Source: Candidatus Babelota bacterium (GTDB lineage: Bacteria > Babelota > Babeliae > Babelales > Vermiphilaceae). Taken from it: a stretch of DNA of 32,000 nt. Below the pieces are notes generated by a model. It saw only the letters and a list, made by a program, of their open reading frames with translations, was not told the origin of the DNA and searched no databases. Of this stretch, positions 16,548 through 26,677 are shown one piece after another; the first letter of the stretch is position 1; each line of letters begins with the position of its first letter. The DNA lies in the NCBI GenBank assembly GCA_039809905.1, contig JBDHVY010000001.1:60001-92000 (forward strand), read 5' to 3'. The translations under genes were made by a program, and so were the position numbers.

Positions 16548-17816
16548 TTATTTCTTATAAAACGTATTTAATTCTGTGCCAAGCCATGAATCAATAATGG
16601 CAAATCCTAAATCCTTCAAAACTTTCGGATCTGAGTTTTTCATCGCACTTTGTTTCTTCACAATATCATCATCAAAAGAAATAATGGTGCCATGGCCAGA
16701 AAAACTGATCCAATTTTTATTGCCATGTTTTTCAGATAATTTTCGCGTAATTTTTTTCCAGACATCCATGTATGATATAGCATCCAGCGGCACACCAACT
16801 TGTTGTTTAACATACGCGCCACTTTTATACGAGGACCACTTAATGCCTAATGCTATACTTCTTATTGATCCAGTATCATCAGTAAGAGCTTTATAAAAAG
16901 CTTCATTATTAATTCTTCCAATTGCAAGATACCAGGCATTTTTGGTAAGAGCATATGCAAGAACATATTCTTCGCTTGGTAAAAAATATTTTGCTAAATT
17001 AACATAATAGCCTTTACCATTCCCATTAAAACAGTTCGCATATCCCATACTCGTCAAATACCTATCATAGGTGCCCCACACAGGAAAATAAAAATCCGTT
17101 ACTGCTTTTACCTGCTCGTATAAATCCTTATCTTCCAGTAAGAATTACTTGGGCCTACGAAAGGAGAAGATAAATCATCATGATAAAATAATACTTTTTG
17201 ATGAGGATATTTCCCGCTCACCAGAGGAAATTGAAACTCATCCTCATTTTTATCTTTGAATACTGGCAAGAAAAGACCCAATGATGCTGCTAAATCCCCC
17301 ATAGAAAATACGGGCCAGCCAAATATAGTAAATTGAAACCGCTGGACAGCTTCAAAATTAATAAGAAAATATGGTACTTGAAGCGTTCCTGAATAGACAT
17401 TACTCATTTTATCATCAATTAAGCTATTGCCTTTTTTATCATAAAAATGAGGAAATACGGGTCCATATTTTTTAGCATTTTCAACGAATTGCACCAATGC
17501 TGGAAAATGCTTGCCTTCCCGCCTCATGATTAAGACTTTCAATAATTCCATGCCATTTCAACAATGGAAATATGTTTAAGGCCATCCATTCTCTGCGAGA
17601 ATAACTGGCAACTTTATTCAAATCATAAGAACCATCAGGATTTTTCATCAATTCAAGTAGTTTTAAATTAAGCATTGGTGCAATCATGCACATATCATTA
17701 CTTTGTTGATGAAAAAAATATGTTGCTTCTTTTTTTGATCCATAGCAGGATCCATTGAATAAGAAGAATGGTAGTAAAAATAATACAACTGATGCAATAA
17801 CTATTTTTTTCATCAT
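16548..17816 (-). pseudogene. Secreted-protein gene X broken by two frameshifts (ORF-track fragments 17481-17888, 17108-17551 and 16548-17081)
   Basis: Three consecutive same-strand ORFs in three different frames with overlapping or abutting ends. The first starts MMKKIVIASVVLFLLPFF (signal; AGGGA RBS before the ATG at 17816). The reading frame continues across 17081-17110 if shifted (…YTS / QVKAVTDFYFPVWGTYDRY…). Confidence 0.6.
17625..17761. repeat. 137-bp perfect direct repeat, copy A (5' part of gene X)
   Basis: Identical base for base, by my comparison, to 19200-19336. Confidence 0.85.
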
Positions 17817-17840
17817 AATATCCCTATTGTTTACAATAGC

Positions 17841-17880
17841 AAAAAGGCAATAGCTTTCAATCTGAAAACTATTGCCTTTG
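17841..17880 (-). terminator. Rho-independent terminator after the 17919-18587 gene
   Basis: aaaggcaatag(17843-17853)/ctattgccttt(17869-17879), followed by a T-run on the minus strand. Confidence 0.6.
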
Positions 17881-17918
17881 GAAAACAAATAACGACTTTA
17901 ATTGAAATCAAACAAAGC

Positions 17919-18587
17919 TTAACTAACAAAACAATGTTTATGAGACATAAAAAAATGATATCCCCACAACAACGCGCAAACGCCCATTAGTATCACAGCT
18001 GTTCGATAAAAATGTGAAGGCTGCTGCCGAGTCGATGTGTACGACATAGTTGCATCAGCGCCTCTGTGGCTATGCCAATCTCTTATTCTTTGTGAAAATT
18101 CACGGCTATGAGAATAAATACAAACTTTCCATCCCTTTTCTTGATACTTTTCTATTCTTTGAGTAAATGAATTAAAATCAAAATCTTGCTTCGGATCGGT
18201 AAAATAAAAAACAAGACCCTTTTTTTGCTCATTTCGAGCAACATATGGATTATCTATTTGAATATCTTCAATATCTCTATCAAATAAATTGTGAGCTTCT
18301 ACTCCTTGTGACACTACTCGATAAAGCCTATTATCCCCAATAAACCAATCTATTTTGCATCGATTTAATAACTGTTTTGTATACCTTAAGTCAACTACCT
18401 TTGATGCAAATCCTACCAAGTCAATTTTAGCCTCTGAATCAACAAGAATAATATGCTTAGAATTCTTACTGTTGTCCAATTCAAAAATATTTGTTCTTAA
18501 TTCACTTTTACAGACCTCTTCTATAGATACTTCTGCTCCACTAGCAATATTATTTAAAAATAAAAACAGCAATAAAAAACATTTCAC
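17919..18587 (-). CDS. Hypothetical protein with signal peptide and C-terminal transmembrane anchor
   Basis: 222-aa ORF. N-terminus MKCFLLLFLFLNNIASGA. C-terminus AVILMGVCALLWGYHFF. No family recognised. Confidence 0.6.
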   Translation of the reverse strand: MKCFLLLFLFLNNIASGAEVSIEEVCKSELRTNIFELDNSKNSKHIILVDSEAKIDLVGFASKVVDLRYTKQLLNRCKIDWFIGDNRLYRVVSQGVEAHNLFDRDIEDIQIDNPYVARNEQKKGLVFYFTDPKQDFDFNSFTQRIEKYQEKGWKVCIYSHSREFSQRIRDWHSHRGADATMSYTSTRQQPSHFYRTAVILMGVCALLWGYHFFMSHKHCFVS

Positions 18588-18830
18588 AATAATTCCCTAC
18601 TTAAATATATATAATTATTTTAACATGCTATTGCTAAATAACATACAGCATTTGCCAAAATTAAGGTCCTATCCAAAAACTCTCAATCCAACAATGATTT
18701 TTTCACATTAAAGTCTCTTATTTTCTTTTAAAAAACAAAATAACAATACCTTCCCAGACTTAATTTGTCAAAATGAGCCTAAACAGCTATTCTATATAAC
18801 ATCTCTATTGAAAACTATGTATTTTTCAGC

Positions 18831-19003
18831 ACGTTCGTATGGTTCGACCCTCTTTCGCTAAAGCTTCAGAGGGCAGGCAGTAATCCGATATAGCCTTGGC
18901 AAATCGAATTAGGACGAACATATTAAATAAATTAATTTACCCGTTCGTTCTGACGAGTCCTTCGTAGCTTTAGCGAAGTAGGAGCCTGTCGAAGGATACG
19001 AAC
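18831..19003. repeat. Composite GC-rich palindromic element (two sub-units, each bounded by gttcgt...acgaac), inserted in the leader of the glyQS 5' fragment
   Basis: Absent from the otherwise homologous leader at 26463-26495. Internal inverted repeats ccctct/agaggg, and tccttcgtagctttagcgaagtagga. GC-rich against an AT-rich background. Confidence 0.65.
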
Positions 19004-19018
19004 AAATAAAGGACCTTT

Positions 19019-25347: not shown

Positions 25348-25357
25348 ACTATTTTAA

Positions 25358-25945
25358 ATGAAAATATTGATAGTATTTCAAATTTCAGAATCACACCTAA
25401 TACACGTTGCAGTCACTCAGCAGGTGAAGACAAATATATATGGCTACAAAACACATGAATTGCATATATTTGATGAAATTGAAGCAAAATATATTCACAA
25501 CAACAAATCGATCATTTTAATTCGTGATAGTGCACAATATGTGATAGAAACATTTTGTAATTCTTTAGAAATGGCACTTAAGAATGAATTGATGTTAGAT
25601 CCATCCCTTGTTCCAGGAAAAATCGGATATTTTTTTAGTAAAGAAAAAGCTGATAATTTTGATGAAATAAAGGATGCGAAGAATATTTTTTCACAATATT
25701 GGGTATGGTCTTCTTTAGATAATGTACAAACATGGCTTTATAATGCAAATAATAAAATATATCTTGAAATAAGTCTCACTTATCCCTGGTTATTTTCAGA
25801 TCCAGAAGAAGGCGAAAATTATATTTCTTTCGATGAATACATGAGTAGCTATAAGCCCGTAGCTTTAATCGAATTGGAAAAATCACTTGTTTTGTCATGG
25901 ATAAATGAATGCCGTAGGCTGTTACAGAAAATGGAAACAGTTTAA
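25358..25945 (+). CDS. Chimeric ORF: N-terminal ~45 aa homologous to the toxin tip, fused to an unrelated ~150-aa domain ('immD')
   Basis: ILIVFQISESHLIHVAVTQQVKTNIYGYKTHELHIFDEIEAKY parallels the orphan tip at 24299 (LIGFPISESQQICIGINEGNTKNIYEYTTDKLHIFDAIEAYG). The remainder (…VWSSLDNVQTWLYNANNKIYLEISLTYPWLF…) has no counterpart elsewhere in the window. Confidence 0.55.
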   Translation: MKILIVFQISESHLIHVAVTQQVKTNIYGYKTHELHIFDEIEAKYIHNNKSIILIRDSAQYVIETFCNSLEMALKNELMLDPSLVPGKIGYFFSKEKADNFDEIKDAKNIFSQYWVWSSLDNVQTWLYNANNKIYLEISLTYPWLFSDPEEGENYISFDEYMSSYKPVALIELEKSLVLSWINECRRLLQKMETV

Positions 25946-25961
25946 TTAATAATATCCCAAT

Positions 25962-26044
25962 CACATTGGATCAATCAATGCTCAAACGTTAAAATTATAC
26001 AAGCCAGAAAACTTCCCGGAAAGTAACAAAGAAAGTAACAAAAA
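25962..26044 (+). pseudogene. Orphan toxin-tail remnant (the other half of the tip split by 'immD')
   Basis: Translates as HIGSINAQTLKLYKPENFPESNKESNKK, cf. HIGSIDPKTLRIYKGPKH. Different frame from 25358-25945. Runs into the immB3 start. Confidence 0.6.
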
Positions 26045-26365
26045 ATGGTTCATCCTCAACACTGTTGTAAGTTAATAGATTTGTTTCTTGATGATATTAG
26101 AGTGCCGATTCTATATTTCCCTGTTCCTAGAGAATATGCACTTCTCATGCTAGAAGAGGGTAGGAAACGAGGCCGAATGAATGCTGTACAAGGTATAATA
26201 TATTGTCCTTGGTGCAACAAGAAACTACCTGAAAGCCTACGAGACAAGTGGTTCGAAATACTTGAAAAAGAATACAATCTCGATGATCCCGATAGTAAGG
26301 AACAACAAAATTTAATTCCTAATGAATTTAAAACTGATGAATGGTGGAAAAAGCGTAGTTATTGA
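26045..26365 (+). CDS. Putative immunity protein, family immB (copy 3)
   Basis: 106 aa: MVHPQHCCKLIDLFLDD...IIYCPWCNKKLPESLRDKWFEILEKEYNLDDPDSKEQQNLIPNEFKTDEWWKKRSY. Followed by TGAATAATGAA, a vestigial immC start (ATGAATAAACAGTAG) at 26369-26383. Confidence 0.8.
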   Translation: MVHPQHCCKLIDLFLDDIRVPILYFPVPREYALLMLEEGRKRGRMNAVQGIIYCPWCNKKLPESLRDKWFEILEKEYNLDDPDSKEQQNLIPNEFKTDEWWKKRSY

Positions 26366-26421
26366 ATAATGAATAAACAGTAGGCATGAAGAATCTACAG
26401 ACTATCGAAATAAAGCTAACA

Positions 26422-26677
26422 AATTTGTCAAAAACCAGCTAAACGGCTATTCTATATAACATTATAATTGAATTAAAGTAACTCAAAGGGCCCCTATGTC
26501 AGCACAAAGACCAACCTTAGACGATATCGTTGCACTCTGCAAAAGACGTGGTTTTGTATTCCAGTCATCAGAAATTTATGGCGGCCTGAATGGGGTATAT
26601 GATTTTGGTCCATTGGGCACCTTGCTTAAAAATAATATTAGAAACGCATGGTCAAAATCTATCAAATCTCCCGATAA
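26422..26677. repeat. Right direct repeat: glyQS promoter region plus first 60 codons (functional copy)
   Basis: See 18762-19200. Confidence 0.9.
26425..26453 (+). promoter_or_regulatory. Candidate glyQS promoter (-35 ttgtca, 17-nt spacer, -10 tattct)
   Basis: The same hexamers and spacing are conserved in the duplicated copy (18765-18793). Motif match only. Confidence 0.3.

Follow-up and report, generated by a model that had tools for sequence, protein, structure and literature searches.

The htrA-glyQS interval and its direct repeats

The 32,000-nucleotide (nt) stretch analyzed here, referred to as the window, comes from a 1,228,744 bp contig of a Candidatus Babelota bacterium and contains an enlarged spacer in front of the glyQS gene that is bounded and divided by two pairs of direct repeats. 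The conserved backbone of this locus has the order pps, htrA (minus strand), a variable spacer, glyQS, trkH, and trkA. The htrA-glyQS spacer is 0.2–3.7 kb long in relatives and is different in each of them; in the window it measures 11.2 kb. Two units follow one another in this spacer, unit 1 of 1575 bp and unit 2 of 7477 bp, which are the lengths given by the first-pass annotation of this DNA. Unit 1 carries a gene for a 222-amino-acid (aa) protein, and unit 2 carries a toxin/immunity island. The borders of the units are made of parts of glyQS and of a pseudogene, designated gene X, that lies on the htrA side of the units.

The first repeat pair is derived from gene X. Repeat A (17625–17761, no strand assigned) covers the conserved-motif codons of gene X and is identical at 137/137 positions to repeat A' (19200–19336, likewise without strand), which is a truncated gene-X fragment; the match reaches back to 17622/19197 with one mismatch. 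The second pair is derived from the 5' end of glyQS. Repeat C (19019–19200, plus strand) is a glyQS fragment of codons 1–60 and is identical at 181/182 positions to repeat C' (26496–26677, plus strand), which is the first 182 nt of the intact glyQS gene. The single mismatch between C and C' is located at 19139/26616, and a weaker similarity reaches back to 19008/26485. Both repeat pairs had been pointed out in the first-pass annotation and were recovered with the same borders. Near-perfect repeats of 137 and 182 nt cannot have arisen by chance in a 32-kb window of ~33% G+C.

The two repeat families meet at a single base. Base 19200, an A, ends the sequence shared with glyQS and at the same time begins the sequence shared with gene X. 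The novel junction, which joins glyQS codon 60 to the interior of gene X, therefore features 1 nt of microhomology, as had been noted before. The order of the border genes fits a tandem duplication, with the longer gene-X copy on the left and a 63-codon gene-X fragment in the middle. For glyQS, the 60-codon fragment takes the middle place and the intact gene lies at the right end.

glyQS, its truncated copy and the two leaders

The intact glyQS gene (26496–27818, plus strand) encodes a 440-aa protein with the PF00587 and PF03129 domains. The protein is 85–94% identical to those of the closest Dependentiae relatives (L142, L089, L031, L090, L001, and L002). Judged by the closest glyQS loci, all of which are from uncultured members, the host belongs to the Dependentiae (TM6), Babeliales. 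The bacterium is amoeba-associated.

Only the downstream glyQS gene is intact. The difference at 19139 turns Gly41 into Ser in the truncated copy; all of the relatives with a readable residue at this position (157/157) have Gly here. The truncated copy also features a long hairpin in its leader, described below, and a single nucleotide polymorphism (SNP) at 19063 in contig L083, which was assembled independently from the reads of SRR27308757. Because of the Ser41 residue, the leader hairpin, and the SNP at 19063, the upstream 60-codon fragment is regarded as a relic, and neither as the working gene of a second strain nor as a one-off chimera. By its sequence the relic is decaying and is inherited in a population.

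Each glyQS start is preceded by a promoter-like segment. The first, P1 (18762–18812, plus strand), was found by a promoter scan and features a TTGTCA-17-TATTCT core; the whole segment is 80% identical to 26422–26472. The second, P2 with its leader (26422–26495, plus strand), is the working glyQS promoter copy and is collinear with the corresponding region of L089. The identity between P1 and P2 is 69–85%, depending on whether the whole edge or the 41-nt core is compared. Both contain the block TTTGTCAAAA..GCTAAA..GCTATTCTA, at 18762–18800 and 26422–26460, and this block is conserved 60–80 nt upstream of glyQS in all close relatives (L001, L002, L003, L031, and L089). The first-pass annotation had described the promoter segments 18762–18802 and 26422–26462 as equal; however, only 35/41 positions are identical (85%), and the identity is 80% over 51 nt.

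The leader of the truncated glyQS copy is interrupted by a G+C-rich palindromic element of ~175 nt (18832–19005), which is located between the promoter and the glyQS start and resembles miniature inverted-repeat transposable elements (MITEs). The element forms a long hairpin with a DNA fold of -37.9 kcal/mol (z = -5.2). It is missing from copy 2, which represents an empty site, and from all relatives compared. A partial copy is present at 3632–3666, next to a tRNA cluster, and a related 210-nt inverted repeat is located at 3894–4104 of L169, beside a homologue of the 222-aa gene. With its long hairpin, its partial and related copies, and its empty homologous sites, 18832–19005 fits the description of a miniature palindromic element; no clear target-site duplication was seen around it. 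The MITE-like palindromes are a G+C-rich family in an A+T-rich genome. A structured glyQS-leader RNA, such as a T-box, was also considered for this segment and was rejected, since the hairpin has no Rfam match, even at E ≤ 1, and is missing from copy 2 and from the relatives.

Gene X and the 222-aa gene

Gene X (16548–17816, minus strand) is a pseudogene in three pieces, which correspond to the open reading frames (ORFs) 17481–17888, 17108–17551, and 16548–17081. The orthologue in L089 (8115–9791) is a single intact gene for a secreted protein of 558 aa with a signal peptide. A tblastn search with the L089 protein showed that residues 31–108, 100–225, and 360–557 match the window in alternating frames. 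The lesions are a frameshift near 17500–17520 and a deletion of ~134 codons at ~17144; in the homologues P0002 and P0003 the reading frame continues uninterrupted where the window has the frameshift. A homologue search with the reconstructed gene X returned three relatives, all of them on short contigs, and no Pfam or NCBIfam family was matched. From these comparisons, gene X belongs to a tiny family of predicted secreted proteins that share the conserved motif encoded in repeat A. The Gln-x5-Cys spacing of this motif resembles that of papain-like proteases, which is no more than a lead.

Each copy of the conserved-motif codons adjoins a different signal-peptide segment. SP1 (17762–17816, minus strand) is the signal-peptide 5' end of gene-X copy 1, MMKKIVIASVVLFLLPFFLFNGSCYG, which is in frame with A and is a divergent allele. 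SP2 (19337–19388, MKKIIGLLLLLPFCFHIYSMDP) is out of frame with A', and together with its upstream spacer it extends over 19337–19480 on the minus strand.

The 222-aa gene is the cargo of unit 1 (17919–18587, minus strand). Its product is hydrophobic at the N-terminus, which resembles a signal peptide, and again in a segment near the C-terminus, and a terminator-like hairpin (17843–17879, minus strand) is located downstream of the gene. The protein has no Pfam or NCBIfam family match, and a search of 5.8 billion proteins found only the protein of the window itself. The htrA-glyQS intervals of L142 and L031 contain weakly similar genes (18–22% identity) with a matching layout of hydrophobic ends, and L169 contains a clearer homologue (tblastn E 2e-17).

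Comparison of the two units with each other and with relatives

In L089, htrA is followed by a 551-aa gene and then by an intact gene X that starts 209 bp from glyQS, and this locus has neither the 222-aa gene nor the island. Gene X in L089 and the 222-aa-type genes in L142, L031, and L169 show that both kinds of gene occur in the htrA-glyQS interval of relatives.

The ends of the two units are nearly identical and their interiors are not. The shared ends are 137 nt at 100% identity and 182 nt at 99.5% identity, while the interiors B1 (17762–19018, 1257 nt) and B2 (19337–26495, 7159 nt) share two stretches only, the 41-nt promoter core (85%) and a signal-peptide stretch of ~40 nt (80% locally). 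Over the whole segment, SP1 and SP2 are 70% identical. The drop in identity is sharp, from 100%/99.5% to 65–85%, and takes place at 17761/17762 and at ~19017. Comparison with L089 separates the two signal-peptide edges. The identity to L089 is 86% for segment A, 87% for segment C, and 85% for SP2, and the spacer upstream of SP2 also aligns with L089; the identity for SP1 is 65%. Additionally, a tblastn search with residues 1–36 of the L089 protein matched copy 2 only. On these alignments, the signal-peptide edge of unit 2 is of the native type, orthologous to L089, and the edge of unit 1 is divergent.

The first-pass annotation had described the locus as a head-to-tail tandem duplication in which the island was dropped into one of two copies of the same interval. 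The topology and the junction of a tandem duplication are borne out; however, the units are not collinear copies, since only their ends are shared. The placement of the island in one of two like copies does not hold, as the interiors have nothing in common except the signal-peptide stretch and the promoter core. The pattern cannot be explained by one duplication and a later insertion of the island, because the interior edges are 15–35% diverged and the ends are 99.5–100% identical. The sharp drop in identity at the unit edges requires at least one exchange with a diverged spacer allele.

Assembly support for the junction

The first-pass annotation had named misassembly at 19200 as a point to be checked. 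The junction was found in an independent assembly of the raw reads. The exact 222-aa protein is present in the Logan assemblies of SRR27308757 and SRR27308745, and this match led to Logan contig L083, which was assembled from the SRR27308757 reads with k = 31. L083 corresponds to window 17732–19229 with 1497/1498 positions identical. It thus extends from unit 1 over the whole of C and past base 19200, and ends 30 nt inside A'. Because L083 was built independently from the reads and crosses base 19200, the junction is not an invention of the source assembly. The one difference between L083 and the window is the SNP at 19063, a synonymous C to T change in the truncated glyQS copy.

Other parts of the region are also represented in the reads. 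Logan contigs L081, L082, L084, L087, and L088 match other parts at 100%, and contigs of SRR27308757 and SRR27308745 other than L083 cover 19307–23200, 25318–26345, and 26822–32000 at 100%. The ends of the Logan contigs fall ~30 nt inside the repeats, as is expected for such an assembly. Exact-protein look-ups with the full glyQS, the 75-aa ORF of the glyQS fragment, the 74-aa ORF on the opposite strand of the junction, and the third DUF6980 protein of the island (DUF6980c) returned no match. Because these look-ups were empty, no contig joining the junction to the island side was obtained.

Origin of the arrangement

The region is explained best, with a confidence slightly above even, as a heteroallelic partial tandem duplication, that is, a natural merodiploid, in the hypervariable htrA-glyQS interval of a member of the Babeliales. 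One illegitimate join with 1 nt of microhomology links glyQS codon 60 to the interior of pseudogene X, and a different version of the spacer between gene X and glyQS is found on each side of it. Version 1 consists of SP1, the 222-aa gene, P1, and the hairpin element, and version 2 consists of SP2, the 7-kb toxin/immunity island, and P2. The ends that bound the two versions are nearly identical and comprise 137 nt of gene X and ~190 nt of glyQS. The arrangement would require one illegitimate join and a homologous exchange between two alleles of a variable locus. The most economical route would be a single event that joins molecules with different alleles, either by an unequal illegitimate crossover or by a Campbell-type single-crossover integration of a fragment that had been closed at the junction. 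A two-step route, in which an ordinary tandem duplication is followed by homologous replacement of one interior, would be about equally compatible with the data.

Several observations weigh against a merodiploid of two alleles. L083 passes through repeat C without a break, although a k = 31 graph would be expected to break there if C' had the same coverage. No read or contig that spans a whole repeat was found among the contigs examined, and for this reason the unit order, the copy number, and the link from 19200 through A' to 19337 depend entirely on the source assembly. The contigs searched included none with a pure haplotype of version 1 or of version 2, so that the presence of two alleles in the population is inferred and not observed. 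The relationship to L089 is about equally close for P1 and for P2, and the signal-peptide edge is therefore the main basis for calling one edge native and the other divergent. Sharp boundaries of identity could also result from gene conversion in an old duplication, which is a third and weaker option for the route.

A plain intragenomic tandem duplication of 17625–19200, in which the island subsequently replaced or invaded the interior of the second copy and no second allele took part in the duplication, is considered fairly unlikely. Its topology and its 1-nt junction are typical of tandem duplications, and partial duplications are frequent in the locus and in the clade, as illustrated by the cassettes with a 1.6-kb period in the island and by end fragments of pps and trkA. 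This model does not account for interiors that share 80–85% locally and 69–70% over the whole edges next to adjoining ends of 99.5–100% identity. It is also opposed by the finding that the L089-like edge belongs to unit 2, the island unit, and not to unit 1. Since a second recombination with a diverged allele is needed in any case, the plain duplication amounts to the two-step version of the merodiploid explanation. An artefact or a mixture of strains is improbable. Here two haplotypes would have been threaded serially by the assembler, and the junction would derive from molecules present in a minority, for example a small circle, a tandem array of unit 1 only, or chimeric reads. The presence of both versions in the same two sequencing runs, shared ends (137 and 182 nt) close to short-read length, the lack of a whole-repeat-spanning contig among those examined, and the SNP of L083 in repeat C, which indicates that the population is not clonal, are all in keeping with such a mixture. 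However, the k-mers of the junction are present in the independent raw-read assembly, the source contig is 1.23 Mb long, and all other Logan contigs match the source contig at 100%. The glyQS copy linked to the junction features Ser at an invariant Gly position and cannot be the sole glyQS of a viable strain.

An entirely different origin, in which the island is a site-specific integrative element that inserted at the 5' end of glyQS, with the 182–198-nt repeats as attL/attR and the recombinase encoded elsewhere or lost, is scarcely credible and was rejected. Direct repeats of the 5' end of glyQS do lie on both sides of the segment 19206–26484, and the same island is found elsewhere in L169 and beside an unrelated gene in L171. 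However, no integrase, transposase, or relaxase domains were found in the window, L169, or L171 (for L169 and L171, in the precomputed Pfam families of the called genes), and the ORFs of ≥ 90 aa in the window contain no integrase, transposase, or recombinase domains in Pfam and NCBIfam scans, in agreement with the first-pass annotation. The 182–198-nt repeat far exceeds a typical att core, and the borders of the island differ between the window, L169, and L171. Additionally, the left end of such an element would be a 137-nt perfect gene-X copy followed by the spacer between gene X and glyQS that is orthologous to L089. Because the left border consists of the gene-X copy and this orthologous spacer, the flanks of the island are chromosomal and not specific to an element.

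The merodiploid arrangement has consequences for the stability of the locus. The first-pass annotation had considered the locus prone to deletion or amplification, and the repeats support this. Unit 1 would be lost by a crossover between A and A', and the island by one between C and C'. The latter event would leave glyQS behind the hairpin-bearing leader, and its product would also carry Gly41Ser if the crossover took place within the last 61 nt. Unequal exchange would amplify the units. It may be speculated that such recombination products are counter-selected, which would stabilize the island.

The toxin/immunity island

The island begins, on the gene-X side, with an older orphan module (19558–20148, plus strand) that contains a 165-aa gene, a toxin 3' remnant, and the ribosome-binding site (RBS) of a lost DUF6980 gene. 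The sequence TAGGAGTCATC at 20139–20149 matches the region upstream of DUF6980b at 24496–24535, and the module is cut at ~20148–20154, directly after the RBS. The homology to the ATPase module of the other islands begins at 20173 (L169) and at 20154 (L171).

An AAA+ ATPase of 407 aa (20257–21480, plus strand; PF00004, E 7e-21) precedes a polymorphic toxin of 454 aa (21541–22905, plus strand). The toxin features a colicin-E3-like ribosomal RNase (rRNase) tip at residues 400–448. The tip matches PF09000 at 23.8 bits, with a cut-off of 22, and colicin E3 in the PDB (4udm_B) with an E of 0.002; in this alignment WDklHndvE is paired with WDsqHgelE (WD..H...E). The aligned Asp, His, and Glu are taken to be catalytic, and the tip is a predicted rRNase. 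The N-terminal ~350 aa of the toxin are shared with proteins of the Babeliales that bear other tips (PF07591 and PF15526). The homologues cover 78–80% of the query from the N-terminus and end in PF07591, PF15526, or PF09000 tips, and one homologue with a different tip is named polymorphic toxin-type HINT. In L171, residues 1–369 are shared with the toxin of the window and are followed by a different tip. The ATPase gene also precedes the toxin gene in L169 (92% aa identity) and in L171 (83%), so that all three loci seen (the window, L169, and L171) show the same pairing of an AAA+ ATPase gene with a toxin gene. This pairing suggests a dedicated role of the ATPase, which may concern export or activation. 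A scan of viral contigs with the ATPase gave one distant match only (26% identity).

The toxin is followed by an array of candidate immunity genes and orphan cassettes (22930–26365, plus strand). Three genes of the array, at 22930–23220, 24536–24832, and 26045–26365 on the plus strand, belong to the DUF6980 family (PF22400, E 1e-13 to 1e-16). The first DUF6980 gene starts 25 nt past the toxin stop codon, and each further DUF6980 copy, or the 195-aa gene, comes after a tip or a tip remnant. The DUF6980 genes are candidate immunity genes. The array also holds 170-aa and 123-aa paralogues, a 161-aa paralogue of the 165-aa gene, and the 195-aa gene; the 165/161-aa, 170/123-aa, and 195-aa proteins have no NCBIfam or Pfam annotation. 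Toxin 3'-end remnants are located at 20034–20135 and 24414–24515, and the cassettes of the island repeat with a period of ~1.6 kb at 82–89% identity. In L171, homologues of the 195-aa gene and of DUF6980c are found directly 3' of the toxin with the different tip. Because the 195-aa homologue in L171 comes right after a differently tipped toxin, window 25354–26340 is considered an orphan module.

A conserved N-terminal body with variable tips and orphan tip/immunity cassettes downstream, two features of polymorphic toxin systems, were both found. The island is a recombination mosaic of the polymorphic-toxin kind. Its G+C content is 27–31%, slightly below that of the flanks at 33–37%.

Recurrence in the clade and neighboring features

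The same ATPase/toxin island is present in L169 (JGI Ga0157378_10030373, 1–4775) at 90% nucleotide identity, elsewhere in the htrA-glyQS interval. In L169 the island sits between two repeats of ~110–170 nt from the htrA upstream region that are 87% identical, and on its right side a 170-aa gene is truncated at codon 43, where it meets a decayed fragment of htrA (codons 1–37). Extra truncated 3' ends of pps are found just downstream of the intact gene in L031 (2206–2327 / 2888–3009). L003 also has pps 3'-end copies (5630–5732 / 6944–7046 and 5957–6085 / 7267–7395), including a copy with a palindromic insertion, and a trkA 3' fragment lies downstream of the intact trkA in L004 (17087–17243 / 17810–17966). 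The glyQS, htrA, pps, and trkA relics show that truncated core-gene ends beside variable segments are common in the clade. This recurrence suggests a general process that is driven by illegitimate joins.

A broader and rather doubtful possibility is that the accessory cassettes of the clade, including the ATPase/toxin island, are exchanged between strains without a recombinase, as chromosomal fragments that carry a piece of a core gene. A single homologous crossover and one illegitimate join would stack the incoming allele beside the resident one and would leave a truncated core-gene end as a scar. If true, such an exchange would explain the glyQS 5', htrA 5' (L169), pps 3', and trkA 3' relics, and it would tie the island to the sole working promoter copy of an essential gene.

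Other features of the window lie at some distance from the interval. Two tRNA-Arg genes are located on the minus strand at 3803–3879 and 3953–4029, with partial tRNA copies nearby at 3651–3727, 4108–4133, and 4211–4223. A 47-nt unit is repeated at 4059–4105 and 4166–4212 in the same region, and window 3600–4250 looks scarred by partial duplications or integrations that took place repeatedly at tRNA genes. Window 4847–6343 features a strong match (E 2e-122) to the MavL-like ADP-ribosylhydrolase family, PF16062, which is known from Legionella effectors, and ankyrin-repeat proteins are encoded at 12862–13647 and 15445–16386. A gene content with MavL-like and ankyrin-repeat genes is typical of bacteria that live inside host cells.

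Relation to known systems and significance

Spontaneous tandem duplications with microhomology junctions have been described for Salmonella and E. coli. The locus resembles them in its head-to-tail topology, its single novel junction with 0 to a few nt of homology, its truncated and intact border copies, and its repeat-driven instability. It differs from them in that its units correspond to two diverged alleles with different cargo that share only 137 and ~190 nt. The whole structure is comparable to Campbell-type merodiploids and homology-facilitated illegitimate recombination, in which two alleles stand in tandem, split by a duplicated homologous segment, one homologous exchange and one illegitimate join suffice, and resolution to either allele is possible. 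In the window, C and C' flank 19201–26484, and the junction at 19200 features 1 nt of homology, as in a Campbell-type event; unlike in Campbell-type integration, there is no vector or foreign backbone.

The island resembles polymorphic toxin systems such as contact-dependent inhibition (CDI) and Rhs in its conserved N-terminal body, its exchangeable tips, and the small gene directly downstream. Tip remnants and candidate immunity genes further downstream, and turnover by recombination without an integrase, are also features of these systems. Unlike CDI and Rhs systems, it belongs to a Babeliales host and an AAA+ ATPase gene accompanies its toxin gene at each of the three loci seen, and no CdiB, Rhs, type VI secretion system (T6SS), or type VII secretion system (T7SS) markers were found in the window. 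Like islands integrated at gene ends, it is flanked by a partial copy of the target gene, with a functional gene reconstituted at one side. It departs from such islands in the duplication of a 5' end with its promoter, in the lack of a recombinase among the domains found, in the length of the repeat (182–198 nt), and in the chromosomal sequence at its other border. No paper naming both Dependentiae and polymorphic toxins, and none naming DUF6980, was found in a full-text literature search.

The rearrangement is real but mechanistically familiar, and its cargo adds a further example to the polymorphic toxin systems. The locus changes no general principle. The predicted deletion and amplification variants could serve as strain markers or could confound assemblies. 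The locus shows, at base-pair resolution and backed by an independent assembly, how gene content may change in uncultured host-associated bacteria for which genetics is not available. A variable spacer between conserved genes would gain its cargo through illegitimate joins and homologous exchange and not through the enzymes of mobile elements. In addition, Babeliales carry polymorphic toxin loci, in which a predicted colicin-E3-like tip occurs together with a conserved AAA+ ATPase partner and with DUF6980 proteins, the candidate immunity factors.

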